Assembly: GCA_977017645.1 (NCBI GenBank)
Contig: OZ360225.1
Coordinates: 126,418,001 to 126,482,000 of the forward strand
Direction: 5' to 3'
Origin: Torpedo marmorata
Taxonomy: Eukaryota
Length of the DNA stretch: 64,000 bases
Below, piece by piece: positions 11,240-61,680 of this stretch. Within the stretch, counting starts at the first letter, position 1; the number at the start of each line of letters is the position of its first letter. The notes under the pieces were generated by a model that was given only the letters and a program-made list of their open reading frames with translations, made no database searches and was not told the origin of the DNA. The position numbers and the translations under genes are program-made.

Positions 11240-12035
11240 AGGGGGATTGAGTTCAAGAGCCATGAGGTAATGTTGTAGCTCTATAACACTCTGGTTGGAC
11301 AACACTTGGAGTATTGCATTCAGTTTTGGTCACCTCATTACAGAAAAGATGTACAAGCTTTAGAGAGGGTGCAGCGGAGATTTACCAAGGTGTTGCCTAG
11401 ATTGGAGGACGTCTTCTGAAGCAATGTTGACTGAGCTCGGGTTTTTCTCTTTAGAGCAGTGGTTTTCAAACTGCCCCCCTAAACTCACATTCCACCTTAA
11501 GCAATCCCTATGCCATAAGTGCTCTGTGAATAGTAAGGGATTGCTTAAGGTGGTTTGTGAGTGGAAAGAAAAAGTTTGAACATCACTGTTTTAATCGTAC
11601 CTAATTGACTCGTTATGTGCACGGTTTCATAACTCCAAAGGAAATGGGCCAATGACAATTTTTCTCAAGCAAAATCAGTAACAATTGGGTCTAGAGCAGT
11701 GGTTCTCAACCTTCCCTTCCCGCTCACATACCACCTTAAGCAATCCCTTACCAATCACAGAGCACTTATGGCATCGGGATTGCTTAAGGTGGAATGTGAG
11801 TTTAGAGGGGCAGTTTGTAAACCACTGCTTTAGAGCAACGAAAGATGAGTAGTGACTTAATAGAGATATATAACATTATGAGAGGCAACAGGATGGACAG
11901 CCAGCACCTTTATCCCAGAGTGATAGTCGCAAATACCAGGGGATATCTGTGAAGCAGTCAAGTTTTGGTGAGTGGAGGAAAGTTTAGGGGAGATGTGAGA
12001 GGCACGTTTTTTACACCGAGCGTGATGGGTGCCTG
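11240..12035 (+). mobile_element. CR1 LINE 3' fragment interrupted by a hAT MITE
   Basis: Degenerate LYxTLVxxHLEYCIQFWSPHYRKD...LERVQRRFT; sequence resumes after the MITE with a RRMxxDLIExY-like segment. Confidence 0.8.
11457..11827. mobile_element. hAT MITE, family B copy 1 (long internal inverted repeats)
   Basis: TIRs cagtggttttcaaactgcccc / ggggcagtttgtaaaccactg; perfect 8-bp TSD ctttagag at 11449-11456 and 11828-11835. Confidence 0.9.
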
Positions 12036-12802: not shown

Positions 12803-13059
12803 GAAAGTAAAACACAAAAGTCTGCAGACACCGTGGTTGAAGTAAAAACACAATCCTGGAAAAACTCAGCAGGTCAAACAGTGTACTTTAAATAGCAAAG
12901 ATAAAGATACATAACCAAAGTTTTGGGCTTGAGCCCTTCATCAAGGTACCTTCATACTTTGATGAAGGGCTCAAGCCCGAAACGTTGGTGATGTATGTTT
13001 ATCTTTGCTATATAAAGTACACTGTTTAACCTGCTGAGTTTCTCCAGCATTGTGTTTTT
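12803..13059. mobile_element. Penelope-like pLTR-derived fold-back palindrome
   Basis: Arms of ~100 bp are inverted repeats (ctggaaaaactcagcagg...gggcttgagcccttcatcaa / ttgatgaagggctcaagcccgaaacg...cctgctgagtttctccagc). 12-bp TSD acttgctgaaat at 12791-12802 and 13060-13071. Confidence 0.85.
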
Positions 13060-13806
13060 ACTTGCTGAAATAGGGCAGTTTGCATGTTGAAATCTGTTTG
13101 AAGAGTTTTTAATGAATACTGAAGCTGCCCAATGAAATCTCCCAATGTCTGCAAAGTGTCCCTGTTAAAGCCGAGAAAAACATGATGTGCTTCTTGTTCC
13201 ACACAGACTGTCCAACAATGGTCAAAGCACAAAGCTGAGAGATCCAATCATCACCAACGCAAGTTATACATATAAGTAAAGTTATTTATTATTAGGACAG
13301 TACCCGAGGTTAAGTAAAGGTCAGGTACAACCACAAGTAACATATGGGGGTGTGCCTAGAAGAAAGTTGCAATTGGCTCATTTTTACCAGATATAATTAC
13401 TGAGCAATTTACTCTGGGTAAAACTGAATTTTGTGCAATGAACTCTTCAAAAGTAGATGCAACATCATCTAATTTCTGGGCATATTTGTTCCAAATCCAA
13501 AATGATTTTAACAGGCATTCCGAAGAAGACAAGACAACCCAAATTAGAAAATACAAACTAAATATTTGTAAAGCCAGTAGGAGCATCACAATAATAAAAA
13601 TGACAATGAATTAATTTGGAATATTTTTACATCTTTCACAGAAATGCATGTTGATGTTAGCTGACCTTGTTAAACTGTGTAACCACTATTCTTTGAGTTT
13701 TATTTATGAGTAAATTAGGCTCCAATATCTGAAATTGTTAATAACTTTAACACCAAATTTGTAAAGCAACTAAGTTGAATTTTATCGTTTAATAATTAGG
13801 TTACTT

Positions 13807-14984
13807 ATCAAAATAGACTTATTTCATTTGCTTTTGATAATCAATTATTTAAAATTTGGTTTCAAAAGGGAATTAACAAAATAAATGACTGTTTTGAAGC
13901 TGGTAAATTTATTACTTTTCAAAGAATGAAAGATAAGTTTAATATATTAGACAATACGTTTTTTGCCTATTTCCAAATTAAAGCATTTTTAGTTGAAAGG
14001 TTGGGCCATAGTTTGACTTTACCTCGACAAAGTGAATTTGAATTATTAGTTACAAATGGAGGTGTAAATAAATTTATTTCTCAAATGTATAAATTATTAC
14101 AGAGGAAAATGCCTAAGGTAGCTATTCACAAATCAAGATTAAAATGGGAATTAGATTTGAATGTAACAATAGAAGAAAAGCATTGGAAAGAATTATGTAA
14201 ACTAAGTATGACTAAGATTATTAATGTTAGATATAGATTAGTGCAGTATAATTTTTTCCATCAATTATATTTAACACCTAAAAGATTAAAGAAATTTAAC
14301 CCGACATTATCAGATTTATGTTTTAGATGTAATAGGGAGGAAGGTTCTTTTGTACACTCTACATGGTTTTGTCCAAAGATATATGATTTTTGGTTGAAAG
14401 TTAAAAAGTTTTTAGATAAAGTATTAAGAAATACACTCCCAATGGATCCTATGATATTTTTATTTGGAGATATTAAAAGAATTAGTATTATGATGAAATT
14501 AAATATGTATCAAATAGAGTTTTTGAGAATTGCTTTAGCTGTGGCTAAGAAATGCATTGCTATTACTTGGAAGTCTGATGTAGATTTGGGTTTAGAAAGA
14601 TGGCATGCAGAACTTCATTCATGTATACCACTTGAAAAGATTACTTATAATTTACGTAATAAAAATCATTTCTTTTTGAAAACATGGAGCCCATACATAA
14701 AAGCGGTTGGTTTAAAAATTTGAAGATCTCCAGAGATCAGATCAGACGGGCGAATCCTACTTTCCACAAAAGATTTAGTTGATAGTTGTTCTTTTTTTAG
14801 ACATTCTCCTTATTCTATTTCTTTCTTTTCTTTATTTTTAGATTAGTGGGGGCGGGAGGGCTAGGGTGGGGAGGGTGGTTGGGGGGGAGAAAATGTATCA
14901 CATGTATTTTGATAATTTTATATTTTGCCTTATGTATTTTGTGATTTAAAAATTTTAAATAAAATATTTTAAAAAAAATAATAA
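13807..14984 (+). mobile_element. 5'-truncated L1 copy with TSD; uninterrupted ORF2 C-terminal frame 13926-14723
   Basis: 265-aa stop-free ORF2 C-terminus with CCHC finger, then G-tract, AATAAA and A/(TAA)n tail. 17-bp TSD taataattaggttactt at 13790-13806 and 14985-15001. Confidence 0.93.
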
Positions 14985-16465: not shown

Positions 16466-16531
16466 TTTACTGATGCCAACCCATGATTCTACTATTCATT
16501 TTGCACAAGTTCACAGTCACCTTATAAGGCA

Positions 16532-16893
16532 TGTAAGGGTTAAAATGCAGATTCAGCAAGAAGTCTGTGAAGACGTGTTGACATTCTTTGAGTGTCTCCA
16601 TAGAAATGTATTCTTAGCCAAGGTCTCTCTCTCTCTCTGCATGTTTAAGATAACGGTCAGTTTTGATTTTCATTTGTTCTGCGTTTTAATCATTGTTTAA
16701 TCATCGTTTTAATTGTTTTATCATAGTTTTAGTACCGTATAACAAAGTTGTAATAATGTAGTTACTGATATATAAGGTTTAATAAACCGTGAAAAACTCA
16801 ACTCAACTATAGTACAGACTATTTGTTTGAACAAGTCATAAACAACGACATTCAAGTCTCTCCAGGCAATTATAAAGGAAGATAGTCGCAATA
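16532..16893 (+). repeat. 5' LTR of the BEL/Pao element
   Basis: Begins tgtaagggttaaaa, contains (ct)n, ends gatagtcgcaata; near-identical to 22278-22686. Confidence 0.92.
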
Positions 16894-17751
16894 TTTAGTC
16901 AATAAAATAGGAACTATTAACTCATTAGTCAATAAAAGACGGAATTTAAGACAATAGAAAGTTGGAAATTGGATTTGGAATTCGGACTGAATCGATTGGT
17001 CTCTGTTTAGAGCATAACGAAGAAAGAGGCACAAATGTCAACAGCACCAAGGCCATTGAAGAAGCGGTAAGCCTTACTAAAGGATTCCTTCTGTGTGTTT
17101 ATTGCAAGTAATAACACAGCTTGGAGAAACTGCCGCTTGTCCTTTGAGGACTGTTTTGGTTTTGGAGTAATTGTTGTGCATTGTTGATGTCTGAGTGCGA
17201 CGATCGACTGGATGGATAAGATGGCAGCTGCTGCTGAAGCTGCTGCAACTAAGGAGCTACGTGTTGAGAAAATGAAGAAAAAGGAACATAAAAGAATTGC
17301 AAAGGCGGCAATTAAATACAAGTGGAAACAAAGCGACTCTTCAAGCAAGACTGAGTGAGGATATAGATAAGAAGACAGTTTCAGCTGCTAGGGATACAGA
17401 TCCCACAGAATTACTGCAAAAAACAATAATAGAAACTAAGTTCAGCCACAAAGAAATGGCTGAAACTGTGCCACAAGATGGTGGTGAGGAGGATGGGCAA
17501 TCTAAAATGGAGGCAGAGTCAGATATTAAGGTGACATCTGACTTACAGGATGAAATAGGACCTAAGGATAGTGTGTCAAATGCTCTAAGCAGGAGAATTA
17601 AGAGGAGTTCCAGATCAGGCTCCAGAGCTTCAGGTACTGAATCTATACGTCTAAAGATTCAGGCAGACATGACAGCTCTTGAAGTGGAAAAAAACAATGC
17701 TTCAAATTAAATTGGACTTAGAAGAGTGGGAGGAGAAGATAAGAATAACAT

Positions 17752-17955
17752 GGGTGCAGCTACGAAGAGAAGAGGAGCAAAAACAGGAGCAGCTACGAAG
17801 AGAAGAGGAGCAGAAACAGGAGCAGCTACGAAGAGAAGGGGAGCAGCTATCAAGAGAAGAGGAGCAGAAACAGGAGCAGCTACGAAGAGAAAGGGGAGCA
17901 GCTACGAAGAGAAGAGCAGAAACAGGAGCAGCTACGAAAAGAACAGGAGCAAAAA
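17752..17955 (+). repeat. 33-bp coding tandem repeat (EQLRREEEQKQ) in gag
   Basis: Unit gagcagctacgaagagaagaggagcagaaacag, about 6 full or partial copies. Confidence 0.9.
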
Positions 17956-18182
17956 TAGCAGCAGCTGAGGATGGAAAAGGAGCTGCAGGAGGAGCAGCTG
18001 GGAAGGGAGTAAGTGCAGTTAAAAAGGCAAATGGAGCTACTGGAACTGGGCAAAAGAATTGTTGTTAATCAGGTCAGGACGAAGGCACTAGAAGGCTCAG
18101 TGGTATCTGGAGCTCGAAGTAAATTATCTAAAGTGTCAAGTTTTGAGGAAGGACAACAGAAAAAGAAAATATTTAAGACCAA

Positions 18183-18435
18183 GGCTGAGCCAGTGCTGCA
18201 GTCACAAGACGTGCTTGATCCTGAACTAGGCAGGTTAAGGCACGGTGCTGAGTCAGTGTTACAACCACAATACACGCTTGGTCCTGAACTAGACAGGTTA
18301 AGGCACGGTGCTGAGCCAGTGCTACAATCACAATACATGTTTGGTCCTGAACTAGACAGGTTAAGGCACAGGGCTGAGCCAGTGCCGCGGTTACGTGACA
18401 TGCAAGATCCCAAATTAATCAGGTTAAAGCACGGT
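18183..18435 (+). repeat. 63-bp coding tandem repeat (AEPVLQSQYxxGPELDRLRHG) in gag
   Basis: Four degenerate 21-aa units in ORF 18013-18891. Confidence 0.85.
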
Positions 18436-20757
18436 GGTGCTAGATCTCAAACCCCAATAATGACCGCATTGGACAGAGATGTGAGCCTAATGCCATCATG
18501 TGAAACTGAATACCACCCGCTCCCGGCAGGTATTAGAAATCTGGGTGAACAAAGTAACTTTCGCCCAGGCATGACAAGACAAGATGATATAGCTGCATCA
18601 TTAATTCAGTTACAGACTTTCTCTTCTCTGCCCAAGAGAAAGATTCCAGTTTTTGATGGTGACCCACTTGAATTACAAGCATTTATGAAAAGCTTTGAAC
18701 GCAGTATTGAAATTAAGTGTCTAAACTCGGAGGATTGTTTATATTATTTGCAGCAGTTCACGAGTGGACAACCACAAGATCTTGTAAAGAGTTGCCAACA
18801 TATGGCTCCGAATGAAGGATTCAAACAGGCTAAGTCATTACTAAAGAAGCATTTTGGCAACAAGTATAGAATTTCTACAGCTTATGTATAGAAGGCTCTT
18901 TCATGGTCATCAATAAGACTGGATGACGCGAAAGGTTTACAAGCTTACGCCCTCTTTCTAAAAGGATTTTGCAACGTCATGATGGAGATTGGCCATCTTT
19001 GAGAGCTTGACATACCTAATAATATGGTAATCATTGTAAATAAATTACCCTTCTGGATGAGAGAATTATGGAGAAGTCAAGTTGTTGAATACCAGAAAAA
19101 ATGTGCTGAGAAGACTACTTTTAAGGATTTGATGGAGTTCATTGAAGGGCAAGTGGACGTTGTCACAGATCCAATGTATGGAATTATCAAAGATACTCAA
19201 CAGTAACTAAAGAAGTTGACAAGTCCAAATCGTATCCTCAACCAAAATGTTAAAAAAGTACATTTTCCACCTCATTGATAGTGGCGGATAAAGAAATGAA
19301 GGAAAATGAAAGTTTGCCTGTTGTGAAGAAATGTTTGTTCTGTAATGATAAGCATGACTTGGAAAAATGTTCACAGATGGAAATGAAGACGCACAGTGAG
19401 AAAATCGCTTTCTTGAAGGAAAATGGAGTATGTTTTGGCTGTCTGTGTAAAGGACACATTAGCAAAAACTGCAAAAAGCGACTCAGCTGCGACAGCATCC
19501 CAAAATGCTACATATCTTCAGGAAAAGAAGAATATGGAAAAGGAACAAGTGACCGGAAAGAAACAGATGAAAACAGTGCTGAAGCCCCGGTATTGACAAG
19601 TGGTCTTACTGGGGCCGGCACAGATAACTGCAAACTCTCAATAGTGCCTGTACAAGTTAAGGCCAGGAACGGGAATGCAACGGTACGTACACATGCATTT
19701 CTTGACCCAGGTAGCACTGTGTCATTTTGCACAGTGAAACTTATGAATAAGCTTAATCTTGAAGGAAGAAGGTCAAGGATTCTATTGAAAACCATGGGAC
19801 AAGAAAAGGTAATTGAAACTAACATCGTTTCAGGGTTAGAGGTTGCTGGAATACACAGCGATGATTTTTGCGATCTCCCAGGCATATACACACAGAAGAC
19901 TATGCCTGTGCATAAAGGAAACATCCCACATCAAAATGATGTAGATCGGTCGTTTATCTGAGGAAGGTTTATAAACCGGAAGATAGCTCTGAGATAGAGA
20001 TGCTAATTGGTTTAGATGTACCAAAGGCTCTGGAACAAATAGAAGTAATACCGAGTGTGAGAGATGGACCTTACGCTATCAAAACTATGCTTGGATGGAC
20101 AATCAATGGACCATTAGAAAGAAAGAATGATGTTGCTCAGAAGCAGTCAACAACAAGTGTCAATATGATATCTGTTGTGAAACACAACGAATCATTGAAA
20201 GAACCGTTCAAGACAGGCTTTCCTGAACGCCTCGATAACGACCAAAAACCCTCGAAAGAATACAAACAGTTCTTAGAAAATCTTGCTGACGAAAATAAAT
20301 CAAGAGCATCTAAACCAGCACTGAAGGAATTGTTTTCATCAAAAATGGATGAAAATGAAGTATTAGAAGATGCTGCAAATACTGCTAGTGATTATTCCTG
20401 CGAAGCTAAATCTGGGGCAGGAATGAAACAAATGTCTGGGAACAAATCTGAAAGCAGCTTTTGTAGCCAGATGCACCAGCAGACAAGATCAATGAAAAAA
20501 TCTTGCAACATGTTTTAAAACGGGCAAACGCAGAAAATTGCGCTGATGGTATAAAGGAGCATTTGATTGAAAATATGGTGCAACTGATTTCAGAGTACAA
20601 AATGTTGAAAAAGGACTTAGAAATATTGGATATTCGAGAAAACAGTGACCAAAAGATTTTTAACTTTGTACTTGGAAACAAAATTGATTTTCAGAAAAAT
20701 GGGAACGAATCTGATGATTCTTCAGTTTTGAAAGTGACCAAGAGAAAAGACCAGAGA

Positions 20758-21845
20758 GCAGTTAACAAGAATGGAGAGTTAATTGTAAATAGAATTCGTA
20801 AAGCCAAGTAGAAGAAAAGAATAACTGCTAAAGAAATGAGTGCAGTTATTGAAGAAAGGGATTTAGCCTTGTCAAGATGCATACAGTTGGAAGAGGAGAT
20901 TCATTTTTTGAAAAAGAACAAGTCATTGTTTAATGACACAAGACAACTGACTACGGAAAACAATCAAGAATGTACCATGGAGGAACATTGGAAAGAAATA
21001 TGTAAACAGAGTATGACGAAGATTATTAACGTTAGATATAGGTTAGTGCAATATAACTTTTTGCATCAATTATATTTAACACCTAAGAAATTAAAGAAAT
21101 TTAATTCGACATTATCAGGTTTATGTTTTACATGTAATAAAGAGGAAGGTTCTTTTGTACACTCTACGTGGCTTTGTCCAAAGATATATGATTTTTGGTT
21201 GAAAGTTAAAAAGTTTTTAGATAAAGTATTAAGAATTACATTCCCAATGGATCCTATGATATTTTTGTTTGGAGATATTAAAAGAATTAGTATTAAAATG
21301 AGATTAAATATGTATCAAATAGAATTTTTGCGAATTGCTTAGCTGTTTCAAAGAAATGCATTGCTATTACATGGAAATCTGATGTAGATTTAGGGTTAGA
21401 AAGATGGCATGCAGAACTTCGTTCAGCTATACCACTTGAAAAAATTACGTATAATTTACGTAATAAATATCATTTCTTTTTGAAAATATGGAGCCCATAT
21501 ATAAAAACTGTGGGTTTAAGGATTTGAAGATCTCTGGATATCAGATCTGACTGGTGAACCTGTGTTCCACTATAAAATTAGCTTATAGTTGTTTTTTTTT
21601 TAGATTGACATTCTCCATACTTTATCTTTTTCTTTCTTTTTTTCTTTATTTCTATATTATTAGAATAGTAAGGGTGGGAGGGTTAGGGAGGGAAGGGAGG
21701 GAGGGGGGGTGGAAAATATATCACATGTATTTTGACAATTTTGCATTTTATAAATATGTATTACCGAGTGATTTAAAATTTTAAATAAAATATTTTTTTA
21801 AAAATGTACCATGAAGGCCCAGTTAATAATGACGCAGAAGAGAAA
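20758..21845 (+). pseudogene. MIPOL1: Captured MIPOL1-like coding fragment inside the BEL element (20758-20979 plus 21814-~21845, split by an L1)
   Basis: Translation AVNKNGELIVNRIRKAK*KKRITAKEMSAVIEERDLALSRCIQLEEEIHFLKKNKSLFNDTRQLTTENNQECTM|KAQLIMTQ aligns colinearly with human MIPOL1 as I recall it: AIQKNGAIIVDRIYKTKECKMRITAEEMSALIEERDAALSKCKRLEQELHHVKEQNQTSANNMRHLTAENNQERALKAKLLSMQQ. The identification is from memory, not from a search. Confidence 0.8.
20980..21802 (+). mobile_element. 5'-truncated L1 inserted into the MIPOL1-like segment
   Basis: EEHWKEICKQSMTKIINVRYRL... ORF2 C-terminus, UTR and AATAAA; TSD aatgtaccatg at 20969-20979 and 21803-21813. Confidence 0.92.
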
Positions 21846-22030
21846 AAAAGGATGAACAAGCTTGTGATTATGAAGGTTAAAGAAACTCGTCCATTGGAAT
21901 CAAGGGTATCAGATGTCACACTTGACCAAACAATGTTGGATGAAGAAGCTGTGCAAGAGGTAATAATAAATCGTATCCATAGCTTCGAAAAAAAAAGGCC
22001 CATCTTGTGCTCTCAGGAAAGTGAATAAAT

Positions 22031-22168
22031 TGGAAATTAAGAATCGTGTTCAAGCACTGGATAGGGCCGGGGCAAACTTGCAAGCGGATTAAGACTAAAA
22101 CTGACTTTCTGAACAGACCAATTACCAAAATCTGTCTTTTACAAGAAGCAGAAAGCTTTGATATTTGA
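22031..22168 (+). pseudogene. BEL/Pao integrase extreme C-terminus (DUF5641-like)
   Basis: Manual translation WKLRIVFKHWIGPGQTCKRIKTKTDFLNRPITKICLLQEAESFDI*, matching the BEL pol end consensus KT...RPxxKxCLL. Confidence 0.85.
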
Positions 22169-22277
22169 CTTTCACTTTCTTTTGAATATTTAACCGATAT
22201 ATACTACTATGTTTGATTTTTTTCTTTGTAATGGTACTTATTATTATTTTTTAGATATAATAATTAGGGGCCGGTAT

Positions 22278-22686
22278 TGTAAGGGTTAAAACGCAGATTC
22301 TGCAAGAAGTCTGAAGACGTGTTGACATTCTTTGAGTGTCTCCATAGAAATGTATTCTTAGCCAAGGTCTCTCTCTCTCTCTCTCTCTGCATGTTTAAGA
22401 TAACAGTCAGTTTTGATTTTCCTTTGTTCTGCGAAGATGGAAAGACTTGAGATGGTCCGAAAACTTTTATTGACTGTTTTAATCATCGTTTAATCATCGT
22501 TTTAATTGTTTTATCATAGTTTTAGAACTGTATAACAAAGTTGTAATAATGTAGTTACTGATATATAAGGTTTAATAAACCATGAAAAACTCAACTCAAC
22601 TATAGTACGGACTATTTGTTTGAACGAGTCATAAACAACGACATTCAAGTCTCTCCAGGCGATTATAAAGGAAAATAGTTGCAATA
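22278..22686 (+). repeat. 3' LTR of the BEL/Pao element
   Basis: tgtaagggttaaaa...aatagttgcaata; has an extra ~43-bp block (aagatggaaagacttgagatggtccgaaaacttttattgactg) and a longer (ct)n than the 5' LTR. Confidence 0.92.
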
Positions 22687-22784
22687 GCATTAACCAAAAT
22701 TCTGCATGATTAGGAAGTGGTGGAAGTAAATAATATTCATGAGGATCCAAATAACAGAAACAAGGCTCTAATATTGTATAGAGT

Positions 22785-24992: not shown

Positions 24993-25254
24993 AGTAAAAA
25001 CACAAAGCTGGAGAAACTCAGCAGGACAAACAGCGTCCTTTATATAGCAAAGGTAAAAATACATACCCGACGTTTCGGGCTTGAGCCCTATATCAAGGTA
25101 TGATAAAGCTTACTTTGATAAAGGGCTCAAGCCCGAAACGTCGGTTATGTATTTTTACCTTTGCTATATAAAATACACTGTTTGACCTGCTGAGTTTCTC
25201 CAGCTTTGTGTTTTTACTTCAACCACGTTGTCTACAGATTTTTGTCTTTTTACT
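24993..25254. mobile_element. Penelope-like pLTR-derived fold-back palindrome
   Basis: Long inverted arms with ttgataaagggctcaagcccgaaacgtc; imperfect TSD ataaaccacaa / ataaagcacaa. Confidence 0.85.
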
Positions 25255-28629: not shown

Positions 28630-30060
28630 CCTCATACGCCAGGCTGCTGTCATTGACTTCAGTTCGGCATTTAATGCAATCATTCCCCAGAGGTTGGTAG
28701 AGAAGCTCTCCTCGCTGTGACTCAACACCCCTCTCTGTAACTAAATTCTGGACTTCCTAACAGAAAGACCACAGTCTGTCTGGGTCGGTAGCAGAACGTC
28801 GAGCACTGTCACGCTGAGCACGGGTGCACCTCAGGGCTGTGTGCTCAGCCCTCTCCTGTTCATGCTACTGATCCATGACTGCATCGCCAGATCCAGCTCC
28901 AACAGTGTCATCAAGTTTGCAGATGACACAACAGTAGTTGACCTCATCAGCAACAATGATGAGTCAGACTACAGAGAAGAGGTGGAAAATCTCATGATAT
29001 GGTGCGAGTAACAACCTGAGTCTCAACGAGGACAAGACGAAGGAGATGATCGTGGACTTCAGGAGGATAAGGAATGACCACTCTCCACTACACATCAACA
29101 ACTCTGTAGTCGAGAGAGTGGAGAGCACCAAGTTCCTTGGAGTTCACTTAACTAGTAACCTCTTGTGGACACTCAACATCTCCTAACTTGTCAGAAAGGT
29201 GCAACAGTGATTGTACTTCCTGAGAAAATGGAAGTGGGCAAGGTTACCGGCCACCATCATGTCAACTTTCTACAGGAGCTATATCGAGAGCATCCTGGCC
29301 GACTGCATCACAGTGCGGTACAGTTGCTGCAGAGAAATGGATCGGAGGTCAATCTGCAGGACCGTAAGAGTGGCAGAGAGGATCACTGGAGTCTCCCTTC
29401 CACCCCCACCCCCCACCCCCCACCCCCCACTCTATCGACATGATCTACTGGGATCATTTTCTGGAGGGTGCGCAAAAGCATTAAGGACCCCTTCCATCCC
29501 GCACACAGAATCTTTCAGCTGCCTGCATCGGGAAAGAGATACAGGAGTACAGTATCAGAGCCAGTACCACGAGGCCGAGAAACAGCTTCTTCCCTGGGGC
29601 AGTGAGAATGCTGAACGACCAAAGGAACTGCTCACAATAACTATCCGAGACTCTCTTATTCATGAAACAATATTTATTGATGTATTTGAATATATGAATA
29701 CTTGTCCTGCATATGTATTGTGTTATAAAAAACACAAATGCTGGAGAAACTCAACAGGTCAAACAGTGTCTTTTATGTAGCAAAGGTAGAAATACATAAC
29801 CGACGTTTCGGGCCTCAGGCCTGAAATGTCGGTACTGTATTTCTACCTTTGCTACATAAAAGACACTGTTTGACCTGCTGAGTTTCTCCAGCATTTGTGT
29901 TTTTTACTTCAACCACGGTGTCTACAGATTTTCGTGTTTTACCTATGTATTGTGTTATGTCTGGTTGTGTGTCTGTGTGTTTTGCACCAAGGGCTGGAGA
30001 ACGCTGTTTCGTCGGGTTGTATTTGTGCAATTAGAGGACAATAAACTTGACTTGACTTGA
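28630..30060 (+). mobile_element. Rex1/Babar LINE, 5'-truncated and degenerate (RT plus DUF1891-like C-terminus)
   Basis: [56 protein letters not shown]; tail gacaataaa(cttga)n. Confidence 0.92.
29727..29943. mobile_element. Penelope-like fold-back palindrome inserted in the Rex1 3'UTR
   Basis: Inverted arms around gacgtttcgggcctcaggcctgaaatgtc; perfect 15-bp TSD tatgtattgtgttat at 29712-29726 and 29944-29958. Confidence 0.9.
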
Positions 30061-33419: not shown

Positions 33420-34960
33420 AAACTAAAACTCTACTGCTTGCAACTGATGGATATCACTCCATGTCCTTCATATTCATGTGTGTATCTAGAAGCTTCTTAA
33501 ATGCTACTGTTATATCTGCTTTCACCACTACCCCTGACAGCCTGTTCTAGGCAGCTACCTCTCTTTCTGTAAAATATTTGCCCTGCACATCTCTCTCTCC
33601 TCTCCCTCACCTTAAATGCATGTCCTCTCATGTGTGATGCTTTTGGCCTGGGGAAAAGATTCCCATCAATGCCTCTCATGATTCCATACACCACTATCAG
33701 GTTTCTCCTCAGCCTCCTACACTCCAGAGAAAACAATCCAAATTTGTCCAATCTTTCCCTATAACTCACCCCCTCTCAACCAGACTGTCCACATCCTTCT
33801 CCTTGGTAAACACCAATGCAAAGTACTCATTTGGTACTGCGCCCACTTCCTCTGACTCAAAACATAAATTCCCTCCTTTGTCCTTGAGTGGTCCTTTCCT
33901 CTCCCTAGTCATCCTCTTGTTTTTAATGTATGTATAAAATGTCTTGGGATTTTCTTTAGTCCTGCTCGCCAAGGACATTTCATGGTCATTTTGGGGGTCA
34001 AGAACTTCAAATTCCTGGGTGTCAACATCTCCGAGGATCTGTCCTGGAGCATCCACGTGGATGCAATCACAAAGAAGGCTCGCCAGCGGCTATACTTTGT
34101 GAGGCGATTGCGGAGATTCGGTATGTCGCCGAAGACTCTCGTGAACTTCTACAGGTGTACCGTGGAGAGCATTCTAGCTGGTTGCATCACTGCCTGGTAT
34201 GGTGGTGCCAACTCCCAGGACAAGTGCAAACTCCAGAAGGTTGTTACCTCGGCTTGTGACATCACGGGCACCAAACTTCACTCCATCGAGGACATCTACA
34301 TGAGGCGATGTCTTAATAAAGCAGCCTCTATCCTCAAGGACCCCCACCACCCAGGCCATGCCCTCTTCACGCTGCTTCCATCGGGGAAAAGGTACAGGAG
34401 CCTAAAGACGAGCACTCAACGGCACAAGGTCAGCTTCTTCCCTGCTGCCATCAGATTCCTGAACAATCAATGAACCAAAGACACTAGTGCACTATTGTTT
34501 ATAATTTTTATATAGTAATGTCGTTAGAATGGTTAATATGAATGTTAATTGCACTATGATGCTGCCGCAAAGCACCGAATTTCATGACTTGTTCATGACA
34601 ATAAATTCTGATTCTGATTCTGATTCTAATGTCCTGTTTGAACTCTGTCCTGCAATCTTTATATTTCTCCAGGGGCCTGCTTGCTTGTAGCTTCCTGAAC
34701 CTTACATATACCTCATTTAACTTTTTGACTAAGTTCATGATCTCTCTCGTCATCCAAGGTTCTCTTACTATGCCATCGCTATCCTTCCTTCACACTGGAA
34801 TATGCTGGTCCTTACTTGTTGGTCCTTAAACAGCTGCCTTATGTCAGCTGAGGGCTTGCCCGATAACAGCTGCTCTAATTTTTCTCCCTCTTGCTCCTGT
34901 CTAATCCTGTCATAATTAGCTCTCCCCCAATTTAATATTTTCTATGAGGCCCAATCTTAT
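33420..34960 (-). mobile_element. CR1 fragments (antisense) interrupted by a Rex1 insertion
   Basis: Minus ORFs SYRERLDKFGLFSLECRRLR, KENPKTFYTYIKNKRMTRE, PWMTREIM; continuity is broken by 33984-34628. Confidence 0.8.
33984..34628 (+). mobile_element. Rex1/Babar 3' fragment with stop-free C-terminal ORF (33982-34473)
   Basis: FKFLGVNISEDLSW...KKARQRLYF...FYRCTVESIL...SFFPAAIRFLN; tail gacaataaa(ttctga)n. Confidence 0.92.
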
Positions 34961-36102: not shown

Positions 36103-36861
36103 CTCAAGTCAAGTCAAGTCAAGTCAAGTCACCTTTATTTTTCGTTCATTACCATATACACAGTAAGACGAGATAGCGTTTCTCCAGGACCATGGGCAGA
36201 TGTACATAAATATCATAATACAATAGAAAAAAATTATAACATGCTAATACACATATATATCTAGGAATTGAGGAGCCTGATAGCTTGGGGGAAAAAACTG
36301 TTGCACAGTCTGGACGTACGAGCCCGAGTGCTTTGGTACCTCCTTCCAGATGGCAAAGGGGAAAACAGTTTACCAAAGGGGTGTGAGAAGTCCTTCACAA
36401 TGTTTTTAGCCTTCCTCATGCATTGTGTGTTGAAGATGTCTGTCATGGTGGGGAGAGAGACTCCAATAATTTTCTCCGCTGACCTCACTATCCTCTGCAG
36501 GGTCTTTCGGTCCGAGATGGTACAGTTACCAAACCAAGCGGTGATGCAATTGCTCAGAATTCTCTCAATACATCCCCTGTAGAATGTAGTAAGGATTGAG
36601 GGTGGGAGATGAACTTTCCTCAGCCTTCGCAGGAAGTAAAGACGCTGCTGGGCTTTCTTGACTATGGAACTGGTGTTGAGGGACCAGCTGAGACTCTCCG
36701 CCAAGTGCACTCCAAGAAACTTGGTACTCTTTACGACCTCAACGGTAGAGCCATCCATGGTCAAAGGAGAATGATCCCCCCGGGCCCTTCTAAAGTCGAC
36801 AACCAACTCTTTTGTTTTGTTTACGTTCAGCTGCAGGTTGTTGGTTCCGCACCATTCCATT
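36103..36861 (-). mobile_element. Rex1/Babar 3' fragment (antisense), stop-free ORF 36261-36860
   Basis: WCGTNNLQLNVNKTKELVVDFRR...KKAQQRLYFLRRL...NSFFPQAIRLLN; (tcaag)n at 36103-36130 is the (cttga)n tail on the minus strand. Confidence 0.92.
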
Positions 36862-37319
36862 AGTCCACCAAGTTACTAGACATACCTATTAAACCTTAGA
36901 GTTTACATCTTGCAACCCAGTTGTCTCTTATCCTGCTTTTAAGTACATTTCTACCCTCCAGCATTGGACATATTTTTGTCATGATAACTGTTCATCATCA
37001 GAAACTTCTGTTGTAAGCAAATCAGTGAATTGTAAACTTCAGAGTAAAAGATGAAAGCACATTTATAAAAGTTCAGTCATCTGGGAAAATCATATTTCCA
37101 CAGTTTGCTGCATAATCAGTCAGAATGCAATATTTACCCAAGTGACAGACCACACAGTTACTGAAAATACAGCACTCTCCTTCTACCTGTACTAAGGCTG
37201 TTTCAAGACAGTTGTGTATTTATGTCCTGGTGTGCTCTACGTGACTTTATAGCAGTGACAGAAACTAAGGCAGCAAGAGAAGGTTTTCTTTATGATACTT
37301 GCTGATTTTAAAAAGTCTT

Positions 37320-38271: not shown

Positions 38272-38915
38272 AATGGCATGTTGGCTTTCATAAAGAGGGG
38301 ATTGGAGTATAGGAGCAGAGACGCCCTTCTGCAGTTGTACAGGGCCCTGGTGAGACCTCACCTGGAGTATTACGTCCAGTTCTGGTCCCCAAATTTGAGG
38401 AAGGACATACTGGCTATAGAGGGTGTGCAGCGCAGATTTACAAAGTTAGTTCCAGGGATGGCAGGATTGACATATGCTGAAAGGTTAGAAAAACTGGACA
38501 TATCCGATGGAGTTTAGAAGGATGAGGGGGGACATGATTGAGGTATACAAGATTATCAAGGGGATAGACAGGGTGAAGTCGGATTACTTGTTCCCAATGA
38601 TGGGAGAGACGAGGACTAGAGGGCATAGTTTAAGAATACAGGGAAGGCCCTTTAGGACGGAGATGAGGAAAAAAATTTTTACCCAGAGAAGTGTGAATCT
38701 GTGGAATGCTCTGCCACAGAGGGTGGTAGAGGCAGATTCGCTGATTATGTTCAAAAGAGAGTTAGATAAGACTCTAGTGGGCAGGGGAGTTAAGGGTTAT
38801 GGGGATAAGGCTGGAAAGGGGTACATAGTAGTGATCAGCCATGATCTGTAAAATGGCGGTGCTGGCTCGACGGGCCGAAGGGCCTACTCCAGCTCCTATT
38901 GTCTATTGTCTATTA
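38272..38915 (+). mobile_element. Young CR1 3' fragment
   Basis: NGMLAFIKRGLEYRSRDALLQLYRALVRPHLEY...; near-identical to ~60381-61030; (ctattgt)n tail. Confidence 0.93.
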
Positions 38916-47723: not shown

Positions 47724-49213
47724 GTCAACCAATTAACTGCTATCCTTTGTATTAAATGATAGATGGTTTTGGTCACCTTCCTCTAATCTGGTTCTACAAT
47801 GTAAATTATAGCATTTGGAGATGAAAGTTAACCTAGCAGTAACATAAAGTGTGCAGCAATGAACTGGTTGCCTATTTCTACCCTATCCTCGAATTCCCTT
47901 TTAAACAAGCTAGGCTGTAAAGCTGCCTGTTATTTAGCCATTGCTCATTTTAAGATGAGATCAAAGTTGAATTTCATACTTTTTAAATATTGCTTGTATC
48001 AACATGTTATTTTCCAATGAAATATTCCATTAGTTCTTGTGGTAATTCAGTTAGTTCTTCAGCTGTGTTTAAAATATCATGGTAAGTTTTTCATAATTTA
48101 CACATCAACACCATGCTGAAGAAACATACTTTAATTCAAAATTATAGTTTGTTGCCAATGCTCAATGAATAAGCTGCAGACTAAGTAAATAATTTAGAAC
48201 TTTTATGTGTTATTCATCTTATGTCAATAGTTTTGTAGAATAGGTTTTCAGAGAGTTGATTGAATGAACATACATTTCCACATACCTGTTTTGTTCGGTG
48301 CCTCTACAAATTGCTTACTAATATTTCTGTTAGTTAAAGGATTTTAGTTAAATTAGTTTCAACATTTGTAATTTCATTTTTGTGTGAATTTTATATATTA
48401 CAACATATTCTGTTATATTAATTGAATGAAAGATAACTGGAATGCTATCTTTTTCTAAGAAAAAAATATGTTTCTTTCCATGCCCACAAAGATGATCCAT
48501 CAATTTCATCCAATATCATTCTTGCACAGATGAAATGTCATGGTTTTTATGCCTCAGTTCGCATTTCAGGGTAATTCACAAAGCAAGTCTTGCAATCAGA
48601 TACAAATGCCAGATGAGAAATGCTTGTCTTTTTTTGTTATATCAAAAAAGTCATAATGTGGATAAAATAATGTGGTTGCAAATATTCTGAAGTATTGTCT
48701 CTTTTTTGCAATTGTCATAATTTTCTTCTGGAAATGGGGAGTGTTCATATGAAATCCTTTTCAAACCCCACCTCCTCTCTCGCACAAAGGGAATTGAAAA
48801 CAAGAAAATTATGGGAGATCAAATCACCCATCAAAATCATGTCTTTTTTAACCAGGATTGTTTTTAGTGTTACTTCTGCCTTTTACAGGAGGGAAGAGTT
48901 GCCTGCAGGAGCACATCAAACATAAAACCCATATTAAGTGTTTCTGGGGTCTTTGCTGATATGACTTCCTCTGTGGTTACGAGTTTAGTTTTTAGGTTCT
49001 GCTTCTGTCTGAGGAAGGGTCGATTATTTTTGCTGCGACCTAACAGAAGTCTGGGTTTCCCAACAGTGATTATTCACTTGTTATTAGTCTGGTAGTTGAG
49101 GGGGATAAACCTCTTCTTTAATTCTGTCCAAATTCAAAGAAAATCAGCAAATAGTGCAGTTGAAGCAATGAAACCTCCTGCCCCAAGCCAGACTTCCTCC
49201 CTCAGGCTTTGTT

Positions 49214-49811
49214 TTTTTAAAAATATTTTATTTAAAATTTTTAAATCACAAAATACATAAAATAAAATATAAAATTATCAAAATACTTGTGATACATTTT
49301 CACCCCCCCCTCCCTCCCCTCCCCAACCCTCCCAACCCCACTAATCTAATAAAATTTTAAAAAAAAGAAATAGAAAAGTAAAAGATAAGGTAAGGAGAAT
49401 GTCGATCTAATAAATACATCTATAAACTAATTCTATTATGGAGGTCAGGTAGCCAGTAGATCCAATGTCCAGAGATCTTCAAATCCTTAAACCAACAGCT
49501 TTCATATATGGGCTCCATATTTTTAAAAAGAAATGATATTTATTCCGTAAGTTATAAGTAATTTTTTCAAGTGGTACACATGAACAAAGTTCTGCATGCC
49601 ATCTTTCTAACCCTAAATCGAGATCAGATTTCCAAGTAATAGCAATACATTTCTTTGAAACAGCTAAAGCAATTCGCAGAAAATCTATTTGATACATATT
49701 TAATTTCATCTTAATACTAAATTTTCTAATATCTCCAAACAAAAATATCATAGGATCCATTGGAAATGTAATCTTAAATACTTTATCTAAAAATGTTTTA
49801 ACTTTCAACCG
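49214..49811 (-). mobile_element. 5'-truncated L1 copy (antisense) with TSD
   Basis: ORF 49479-49808 is the same ORF2 C-terminus; 12-bp TSD tcaggctttgtt at 49202-49213 and 49812-49823. Confidence 0.93.
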
Positions 49812-59569: not shown

Positions 59570-59989
59570 TGCCACAAGACTTGTACCACTAGGTTCAGGA
59601 ACAGTTGCTACCTCTCCACCATCAACTTCTAAATAACCGATTCACTCAGAGACTCATTTAAGGACTCTTACTTTGCACATTATTTATGACTGAATATTTA
59701 GTTTTTTCTGTATTTGTACAGTCAGATTGTATACATTTCTTTCTTTGTTTACATTTCTCACTTTGTATACGTATCTTTTTCTTGAGTACAGTTTGCACTA
59801 CCGCTAAGTAGAAATTCTGCCTGGCACACAGGAAAAAGAATCTCAAGGTTGTATGTACTCTGAGAATGAATTTGAACTTTGTAATTTGCACCTCTTTATA
59901 TTTTATCTTCTTCTAGTCCACCTGTCAGGAGACACTTTCCTCCCCCTGAATATTTGTCCTTTTACTGGTGCATTGTAGCTGTGCCATGT

Positions 59990-61030
59990 ATGGCAGGATG
60001 TGACGAGTGGAGTGCCGCAGGGATCGGTGTTGGGTCCTCAGTTGTTTGTCATTTATGTAAATGATTTGGATGATGGGATTATTAATAACATGAGCAAATT
60101 TGCAGATGACACTAAACTGGGTGACGGTGTAAAGTGTGAAGAGGATGTCAGGAAAATGCAGAGGGACTTGGACAGGTTGGGGGAGTGGGCTGAAGAATGG
60201 AAGATGAAGTTCAATGTGAGCAAATGTGAGGTTATCCATTTTGGGGGCAGTAATAGGAAAGCTGAGTATTATTTAAATGGAGACAAGCTAGGGAGTGGGG
60301 AAGTGCAAATGGATCTGGGTGTACTTGTTCACCGGTCACTGAAGGCTAACATGCAGGTTCAGAAAGCTGTGAAGAAGGCAAATGGCATGTTGGCTTTCAT
60401 CAAGAGGGGATTGGAGTATAGGAGCAGAGACGCCCTTCTGCAGTTGTACAGGGCCCTTGTGAGACCCCACCTGGAGTATTGCGTCCAGTTCTGGTCTCCA
60501 AATTTGAGGAAGGACATACTAGCTATAGAGGGTGTGCAGCGCAGATTTACAAGGTTAGTTCCAGGGATGGCAGGGTTGACATATGCTGAAAGGTTAGAAA
60601 AACTAGACATATCCGATGGAGTTTAGAAGGATGAGGGGGGACATGATTGAGGTATACAAAATTATCAAGGGGATAGACAGGGTGAAGTCAGATTACTTGT
60701 TCCCAATGATGGGAGAGACAAGGACTAGAGGGCATAGTTTAAGAATACAGGGAAGGCCCTTTAGGACGGAGATGAGGAAAATTTTTTTTACCCAGAGAAG
60801 TGTGAATCTGTGGAATGCTCTGCCACAGAGGGTGGTAGAGGCAGATTCGCTGATTATGTTCAAAAGAGAGTTAGATAAATAAGACTCTAGTGGGCAGAGG
60901 AGTTAAGGGTTATGGGGATAAGGCTGGTAAGGGGTACTGATAGTAGTGATCAGCCATGATCTGTAAAATGGTGGTGCTGGCTCGACAGGCCGAAGGGCCT
61001 AGTCCAGCTCCTATTGTCTATTGTCTATTG
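59990..61030 (+). mobile_element. Young CR1 3' fragment (RT from VTSGVPQGSVLGP to the tail)
   Basis: GVPQGSVLGPQLF, KFADDTKLG, LYRALVRPHLEYCVQFWSP; (ctattgt)n tail. Confidence 0.95.
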
Positions 61031-61317
61031 TATCATCTTCAAGGCTTGCAGGACCCTATTTCAATACTTTCAGATAACACAAAGCTTGAACATTGTGGAA
61101 GGACATTTACCACAAAATACCTAGTCTGCAATTTCTCCTGGTCATATTTTTTCTTATCTTGTTCATCCAGTTAAGCTTCTGCTCAACAGTAAACTCCAGA
61201 CTGATGATTATTTCCCTGATGCTTTAATGTCACTTCCATTGTCTGACAATTGTGTTGCATGAGTGGTACTTGCCACTTATCACACCAAGCCTAAATATTT
61301 TCAAGGTTTATCTAAAG

Positions 61318-61680
61318 CAGGGGTGGGCAACCTTTTTTTAAAAACTCACATTCCACCTTAAGCAATCCCTATGCCATAAGTGCTCTGTGATTAGTAAGGG
61401 ATTGCTTAAGGTGGTATGTGAGTGGAAAGAAAAAGGTTTGAAAACCACTGTTTTAATTGTACCTAATTGACATGTTATGTGCACGGTTTCATAACTCCAA
61501 AGGAAATGGGCCAATGACAATTTTTCTCAAGCAAAATATTTCAGTAACAATTGGGTCTAGAGCAGTGGTTCTCAACCTTCCCTTCCCACTCACATACCAC
61601 CTTAAGCAATCCCTTACCAATCACAGAGCACTTATGGCATAGGGAATACTTAAGGTGGAATGTGAGTTTAAAAAAAAACA
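61318..61680. mobile_element. hAT MITE, family B copy 2
   Basis: Body near-identical to 11480-11805; left end caggggtgggcaacc; right end degenerate. Confidence 0.8.

Follow-up and report, generated by a model that had tools for sequence, protein, structure and literature searches.

The element at positions 16532-22686 of a 64,000-nucleotide window from Torpedo marmorata (GenBank assembly GCA_977017645.1, contig OZ360225.1, positions 126,418,001 to 126,482,000 of the forward strand) is a BEL/Pao-derived long terminal repeat (LTR) retrotransposon. It is a dead copy, and reverse transcriptase (RT), RNase H and the integrase core are absent. The pol core is replaced by host coding sequence in the sense orientation, made up of pieces of BRCA1, MIPOL1 and probably IARS1. 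On balance, we favor an origin by template switching, in which host mRNAs were captured in BEL particles and the chimera was then copied further as a non-autonomous element. An earlier sequence-only reading had described paired LTRs, gag, protease and a pol tail around a missing RT-RNase H-integrase core, and the LTR alignment and domain scans bore this out. It had also placed about 0.9 kb of insert, excluding an L1, at the site of the pol core, and we counted 906 nt. The cargo is not anonymous sequence, as the fragments match host genes, nor is its A-richness a special trait; the A fraction of the cargo (0.41 and 0.37) was only slightly in excess of that in gag-protease (0.36). All features of the element are given on the forward (+) strand.

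The first cargo piece (20288..20757) is a BRCA1 coding fragment, as aligned to skate BRCA1 by tblastn. When 20282-20515 was compared with 1.84 billion protein representatives, two matches passed E 0.001, and both were BRCA1, from skate (E 5.5e-15) and bamboo shark (E 2.7e-5). The tblastn alignment (sum E 1.5e-42) extended over 20288-20757 and residues 228-387 of the skate protein, with 42 of 59 residues identical over 228-287 and 49 of 89 over 299-387; one frame change was located at approximately 20467-20473, and about 10 codons were absent near 20470. Both the RING domain (residues 24-64) and the BRCT domains (from residue 1728) lie outside the captured stretch. Because the pieces exclude these domains, a working BRCA1 or MIPOL1 protein is unlikely, and the cargo is likely filler. 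At the border with MIPOL1, both parents carry Arg at the protein column concerned, so that at most one codon is shared, and no exon border was available for comparison in the BRCA1 piece. A search of the Protein Data Bank (PDB) with P0001 returned only alpha-fetoprotein (E 0.46), which was not taken as an identity. In a sequencing-run index queried with 19950-20979, 14 of 17 rows (7 studies) contained part of the query, including 10 rows from 4 organisms with shares of 0.24-0.50, one of them reaching half, and no RNA row was among those listed; this is a lead and not evidence, as the BEL part made up only 335 of the 1030 nt and the cargo words could stem from the host genes themselves.

The second piece is a MIPOL1 coding fragment divided in two. 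The upstream part (20758..20979) corresponds to residues 446-520 of the Narcine bancroftii protein, with 57 of 74 residues identical and one stop at 20809, while the downstream part (21814..21842) continues to about residues 521-529 and on its own reached only E 1.2. With X placed at its one stop, the frame 20467-20988 matched 103 of 783 candidate proteins, all with the same two Pfam accessions; the named matches were MIPOL1, except for one JGI row labelled ThiS, and the best was that of N. bancroftii (E 6.1e-24). The cargo shared 3 residues with Narcine against Pristis in this two-species comparison, which suggests a batoid host closer to the electric rays than to sawfish. The two parts are separated by an L1-like 3' fragment (20980..21802; zf-RVT E 3e-4, below cut-off) flanked by an 11-bp target-site duplication (20969-20979 and 21803-21813). 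The L1 insertion is later than the capture of the cargo and split the MIPOL1 piece. By coincidence, the L1 ORF2 tail lies in the cargo frame (20812-21342), which stays open for about 120 codons into the L1, with a chance of about 1 in 3.

The MIPOL1 piece also bears on the nature of the source. Among 102 MIPOL1 proteins aligned on one reference, 3 lacked one common block of 36 amino acids, and insertions occurred at both borders of the block in one protein and at the second border in two more. We infer from these mammalian isoforms that the block ends are exon borders, which would fall at 20877/20878 and 21816/21817 in the cargo, and the cargo is continuous over both. Since the piece spans two inferred exon borders, its source was probably a spliced mRNA; batoid introns are assumed to sit where mammalian ones do. 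We consider capture from spliced mRNA very likely. All cargo pieces are internal coding fragments in the sense orientation, and no poly(A) tail or duplication was found around the cargo, the longest word shared between left and right being 7 nt and A runs close to the 3' end reaching at most 9 nt, the longest of them internal. Tan et al. (2016) described the lack of a poly(A) tail and of a duplication as the mark of LTR-mediated retrocopies, as against L1-mediated ones (PMC5131818).

These observations disfavor local rearrangement after insertion, the alternative that had been named in the sequence-only reading, as the pieces resemble retrotransposed mRNA in spanning the borders without poly(A) or duplication. 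Under such a rearrangement, pieces of processed pseudogenes made by L1 would have entered an intact BEL copy, and deletions would have removed pol and the pseudogene ends. L1-like elements have been active in the region, one of them inserting into the element itself, and older pseudogene pieces would account for the high divergence of the cargo. However, every piece is internal and in sense, with no 3' end, poly(A) or flanking duplication, and pol was replaced rather than interrupted. Several insertions and deletions within 1 kb would also have been needed while the LTRs drifted by 3.7%, and we regard this course of events as highly improbable.

The third piece (21909..22021) is a probable fragment of IARS1, the cytoplasmic isoleucyl-tRNA synthetase (IleRS), corresponding to residues 974-1005 of the human chain. 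Compared with 177,635 PDB sequences, it gave only two matches at E up to 10, and both were cytoplasmic IleRS over the same stretch, the best with E 0.013 and 17 of 35 columns identical by manual count. From 21983, the neighboring frame encodes LRKK at the position of an LRKK in the synthetase, and that frame is also the frame of the integrase tail. The 59 open codons of this piece would have a chance of 0.008 per frame, and a stop follows just past it at 22022. IARS1 is a likely identity. Between MIPOL1 and this piece lies a run of 7 A followed by about 60 nt with no matched parent gene (21843..21908), open in the same frame as the third piece. Atlas matches of the third piece to unrelated bacterial clusters (0.88-0.90) and its sub-threshold Pfam/NCBIfam matches (PgdA_N, Cohesin_HEAT and YicS) were discarded as chance.

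The cargo is enclosed by the remains of a BEL/Pao element. The 5' LTR (16532..16893; 362 nt) and the 3' LTR (22278..22686; 409 nt) both start with TG, and the latter holds an extra 43-bp block (22433-22475) not present in the 5' LTR. The pair was identical at 347 of 360 aligned bases, with 13 mismatches (10 transitions and 3 transversions) and 3 indels, a Kimura two-parameter divergence of 0.037. Both carry a TC microsatellite, which differs in length between them. LTR retrotransposons in general have TG...CA ends and a target-site duplication of 4-6 bp (PMC12440569). In the Torpedo element, the shared LTR sequence terminates in TA rather than CA, and the exact flank duplication is 3 bases, or 4 with inclusion of the first base of the LTR. 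A near-perfect 8-bp inverted repeat appears in the 3' LTR region if the start is moved 3 bases earlier (22275), so that the actual ends of the LTRs may deviate from TG...CA, and these 3 extra bases were not seen at the 5' end of the element; the intervals concerned by alternative ends are 16529-16536, 22275-22282 and 22679-22691. The leader (16894..17220) contains a 13-bp word twice, at 16895 and 16925. A primer site is expected to begin with TGG after the 5' LTR, and none of this type was found directly after it. A short purine-rich tract (22264..22277) directly precedes the 3' LTR and, judging by its position, may serve as a polypurine tract.

A decayed BEL/Pao-type gag (17221..19520, end approximate) follows the leader. 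It encodes an N-terminal SAP domain (17291-17359; score 24.4, Pfam cut-off 23.9) and DUF1759 (18652-19092), which scored 35.8 bits against a cut-off of 25.4 over profile positions 1-146 of 148 when two stops were read through with X, and which we take to be a Gag domain of the BEL/Pao type. Two Cys-His boxes (19332-19370 and 19431-19472) matched published patterns. Between the SAP domain and DUF1759, gag contains tandem units of about 33 bp (17725-18019) and of 63 bp (18184-18447), the latter an array of 4 in-frame copies. The aspartic protease and downstream pol linker (19630..20284, borders approximate) change frame near 19950. The protease motifs FLDPG (19698) and LIG (20003) are about 96 codons apart across that frame change, and Asp_protease_2 and DUF1758 both matched the region only below cut-off. 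As far as KQFLE (20264-20278), the linker is, we assume, BEL-like.

BEL/Pao elements (Belpaoviridae) have been described with a triple Cys-His box and with a protease in which about 98 residues separate the motifs LLDxG and LIG (PMC554778). The Torpedo element resembles Sinbad and Suzu in Cys-His boxes 1 and 2, in its LDxG and LIG motifs, spaced by 96 codons as against 98 in Sinbad, and in its comparable LTR length (PMC554778). It differs from them in the TA end of its LTR, in the absence of RT, RNase H and the integrase core, and in the absence of a recognized third box, as neither published pattern matched one in the decayed gag (PMC554778). We classed the element as BEL/Pao-derived from its Gag domain and protease motifs, and use this label rather than that of a tested member because phylogenetic placement, like the order PR-RT-RH-IN, would need the missing RT, RNase H and integrase core.

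None of the RT, RNase H or integrase-core families was found in a six-frame Pfam scan of 16894-20979 and 21814-22277 (12 frames in all, both strands, E up to 1). What was retained of the rest of pol is a C-terminal tail of 45 codons (22031..22168), in agreement with the last ~45 codons proposed in the sequence-only reading. The tail is DUF5641-like: 22031-22162 matched profile positions 56-94 of 94, the last 39, at E 0.14, below cut-off. We take DUF5641 to be the integrase C-terminal domain of BEL/Pao. The three best Atlas clusters for the tail also carry DUF5641, with a score of 0.88, which is a lead only.

Whether the chimera was copied further was addressed by comparing the divergence of its parts. 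The sequence-only reading had taken the similar LTRs as a sign that the chimera had itself been retrotransposed. The LTRs are indeed similar, but the argument is weak alone, because a local swap after insertion would also leave similar LTRs. Indirect support came from the divergence of the cargo. Of 74 MIPOL1 sites, 14 were changed only in the cargo and one only in Narcine. A decay of 1.8% per copy predicts 2.8 MIPOL1 changes, and 14 were reached in 0 of 1500 simulations; 3.6% predicts 5.6, and about 10% would be needed for 14. The MIPOL1 piece has thus changed about 5 times more than the LTR pair predicts. A model with two rates (element 0.021, cargo 0.091), in which the element rate was dated from the LTRs and the gag stops, was preferred over a single rate (p 7e-5), and with the IARS1-like columns, counted by eye, the preference reached p 3e-7. 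Such an excess is expected if the chimera went through a long period of copying before the present insertion. Unless the LTRs were homogenized, the cargo probably changed before the insertion of the present copy, as would happen in a lineage passing through repeated rounds of reverse transcription, and the element may represent a whole cargo-carrying family.

The alternative to such a lineage is a one-off capture, in which template switching took place in the very round that made the present insertion and the chimera was never recopied. The excess divergence would then be only apparent, arising from gene conversion between the LTRs of an older insertion or from host genes unlike those of Narcine. 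If the LTR clock is left out, the MIPOL1 sites by themselves do not reject one common rate of about 0.07 (p 0.13). The 5 stops in gag-protease are slightly above the expectation from 1.8% decay (mean 2.1, P 0.06), and neither a further copy in the window nor one as a protein among the candidates searched was found. However, this course requires at least three template switches in a single round, and mismatches between the LTRs are confined to 13 of 360 sites. The single Narcine change at the MIPOL1 sites also stands against it, as does the IARS1-like piece, which differs at 7 of the 21 columns that are identical between the two PDB chains. We view a one-off capture as rather unlikely.

Under the capture and further copying that we favor, host mRNAs would have been co-packaged in a virus-like particle, as in the published model, and RT would have switched from the element to the BRCA1, MIPOL1 and probably IARS1 mRNAs and then returned to it, within a single round or over several. 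The host pieces would thereby have taken the place of RT, RNase H and most of integrase. The chimera, with both LTRs, gag and protease, would then have been copied by the RT and integrase of intact relatives, while the amino-acid sequence of the cargo drifted in a frame that remained largely open. The frame probably remained open because Gag would come from the same single open reading frame (ORF), in which a premature stop would be followed by a long stretch without translation. The last step is visible in the present copy, which decayed and was struck by the L1 insertion.

Over its 1020 codons, gag-protease, with segment borders set by eye, holds 5 stops (17956, 18010, 18889, 19000 and 19251), and its frame changes 5 times. 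Because of these, the present copy is dead and cannot make the Gag-protease-host fusion polyprotein that the sequence-only reading had proposed, although the proposal is plausible for an earlier copy. The junctions from pol to BRCA1, from BRCA1 to MIPOL1, and from the 3' part of the IARS1-like piece to the integrase tail are in frame. BRCA1 and MIPOL1 together contain one stop and one frame change in 242 codons, a density equal to that of gag-protease. This pattern fits an earlier single fusion frame without demonstrating it, and selection for an open cargo frame received no significant support (P 0.27 and 0.11). The junctions are known from assembled sequence, and unrelated reads might in principle have been joined. 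Yet assembly of genomic DNA would not place diverged, intron-less fragments from unlinked genes in frame within a matched pair of LTRs, and a clean 11-bp duplication borders the L1 inside the cargo; an assembly artefact is extremely improbable.

Several results weigh against capture followed by copying, or against the pieces from which that reading is built. If the LTR clock is set aside on account of gene conversion, the excess divergence is weakened to p 0.13 when only MIPOL1 is counted and to 0.045 once the IARS1-like piece is added, and the MIPOL1 comparison uses Narcine and Pristis in place of Torpedo's own gene. No second copy of the chimera occurs in the 64-kb window, and of the pattern matches, none of the 4 from viral contigs and none of the 92 from metagenome contigs was an intact relative of the element. 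A fused BRCA1-MIPOL1 protein was absent among 783 longer candidates (best query coverage 56%), and a fused protease-BRCA1 protein among 28 near-length candidates; both are weak blanks. The junction from MIPOL1 to the third piece is out of frame, across the 7-A run, three of four junctions in frame would arise with a chance of 0.11, and a single stop in the cargo would likewise agree with neutral change of 10% (P 0.27). For the spliced source, the exon borders were taken from mammals and not batoids, and one isoform, P0100, skips a block with different borders. The IARS1 identity depends on an E of 0.013 obtained after several searches with the same piece, and five other searches (protein, Atlas and Pfam/NCBIfam) did not name IARS1, the protein search matching 0 of 1 candidate.

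Other repeats were found elsewhere in the window. Four more L1-like 3' fragments (101-890, 901-1354 and 13800-14979 on the forward strand, and 49212-49810 on the reverse) were 79-86% like the L1 inside the element by blastn, and up to 91% over short stretches; zf-RVT matched below cut-off at 13800-14720. ALKBH8_N was above cut-off in three ORFs (29211-29780, 33868-34473 and 36261-36872), which we presume to be C-terminal pieces of long interspersed nuclear elements (LINEs) and not ALKBH8 genes. An RVT_1 fragment lies at 59979-60626 (E 1e-12), and 60381-60680 is 97% like 38272-38571, as in a young LINE-like repeat. Short palindromic repeats resembling miniature inverted-repeat transposable elements, with arms of 90-140 bp, formed two families, one at 11449-11835 and 61306-61678 and the other at 12809-13063, 24993-25250 and 29726-29906.

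The mechanism is already known from Tan et al. and from maize Bs1, and the particular cargo was not found in the literature searched. The six-species survey by Tan et al. includes re-copied chimeras, and among its examples are Drosophila CG4799_CG11924_r, which the Pao element BATUMI assembled from two genes, mosquito ENSANGG00000011308 in BEL18_AG, and a mouse "Super" retrocopy of four genes (PMC5131818). As in those retrocopies, the internal ORF of the Torpedo element was partly replaced by partial host mRNA while both LTRs were kept, the cargo has no poly(A) or duplication and more than one parent gene, and the carrier is BEL/Pao. The Torpedo element differs in having two or three coding fragments behind an entire gag and protease, in belonging to a cartilaginous fish, outside the six species, and in a cargo far more diverged than the young cases (PMC5131818). 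Maize Bs1 is likewise an LTR element that holds parts of the exonic sequence of three genes, and its 1-5 copies share switch points; it has a plant host and other cargo, and its recopying was shown, whereas that of the Torpedo element is inferred (PMC5131818). Avian E26, with its Gag-Myb-Ets protein, is similar in that it joins Gag, in frame, to parts of two host genes that are unrelated to each other (PMC4276956). However, E26 is an infectious retrovirus whose cargo has working transcription-factor domains (PMC4276956), while the Torpedo element is a transposon in which no env was seen, and its pieces lack the known domains of their parents. Judged by titles and the first lines of abstracts, no listed paper reported this cargo or the capture of host sequence by BEL elements in cartilaginous fish, in a search outside which most subscription papers, Repbase and Dfam lay; in PMC3118150, "shark" and "cartilaginous" occur 0 times.

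The established mechanism limits the surprise of this finding. The element is a clear case, from a vertebrate, of BEL/Pao joining coding fragments from two unlinked genes and probably a third, BRCA1 among them, behind its own gag and protease. It also serves as a warning for annotation, as the BRCA1 and MIPOL1 matches at this locus are not the genes. If further copies share its junctions, they would provide a dated series on whether the cargo frame serves the element or a protein function, and a catalogue of the mRNAs that enter particles in the ray germline. A more far-reaching history, which we regard as doubtful, is that a long-lived, non-autonomous BEL/Pao family of rays gathered the BRCA1, MIPOL1 and IARS1 fragments stepwise, with one Gag-protease-cargo-integrase-tail frame kept open under selection. 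If true, the family would parallel, as a transposon, retroviruses with Gag-host fusions such as E26, and germline particles would have received a coiled coil from MIPOL1 and a segment of BRCA1.

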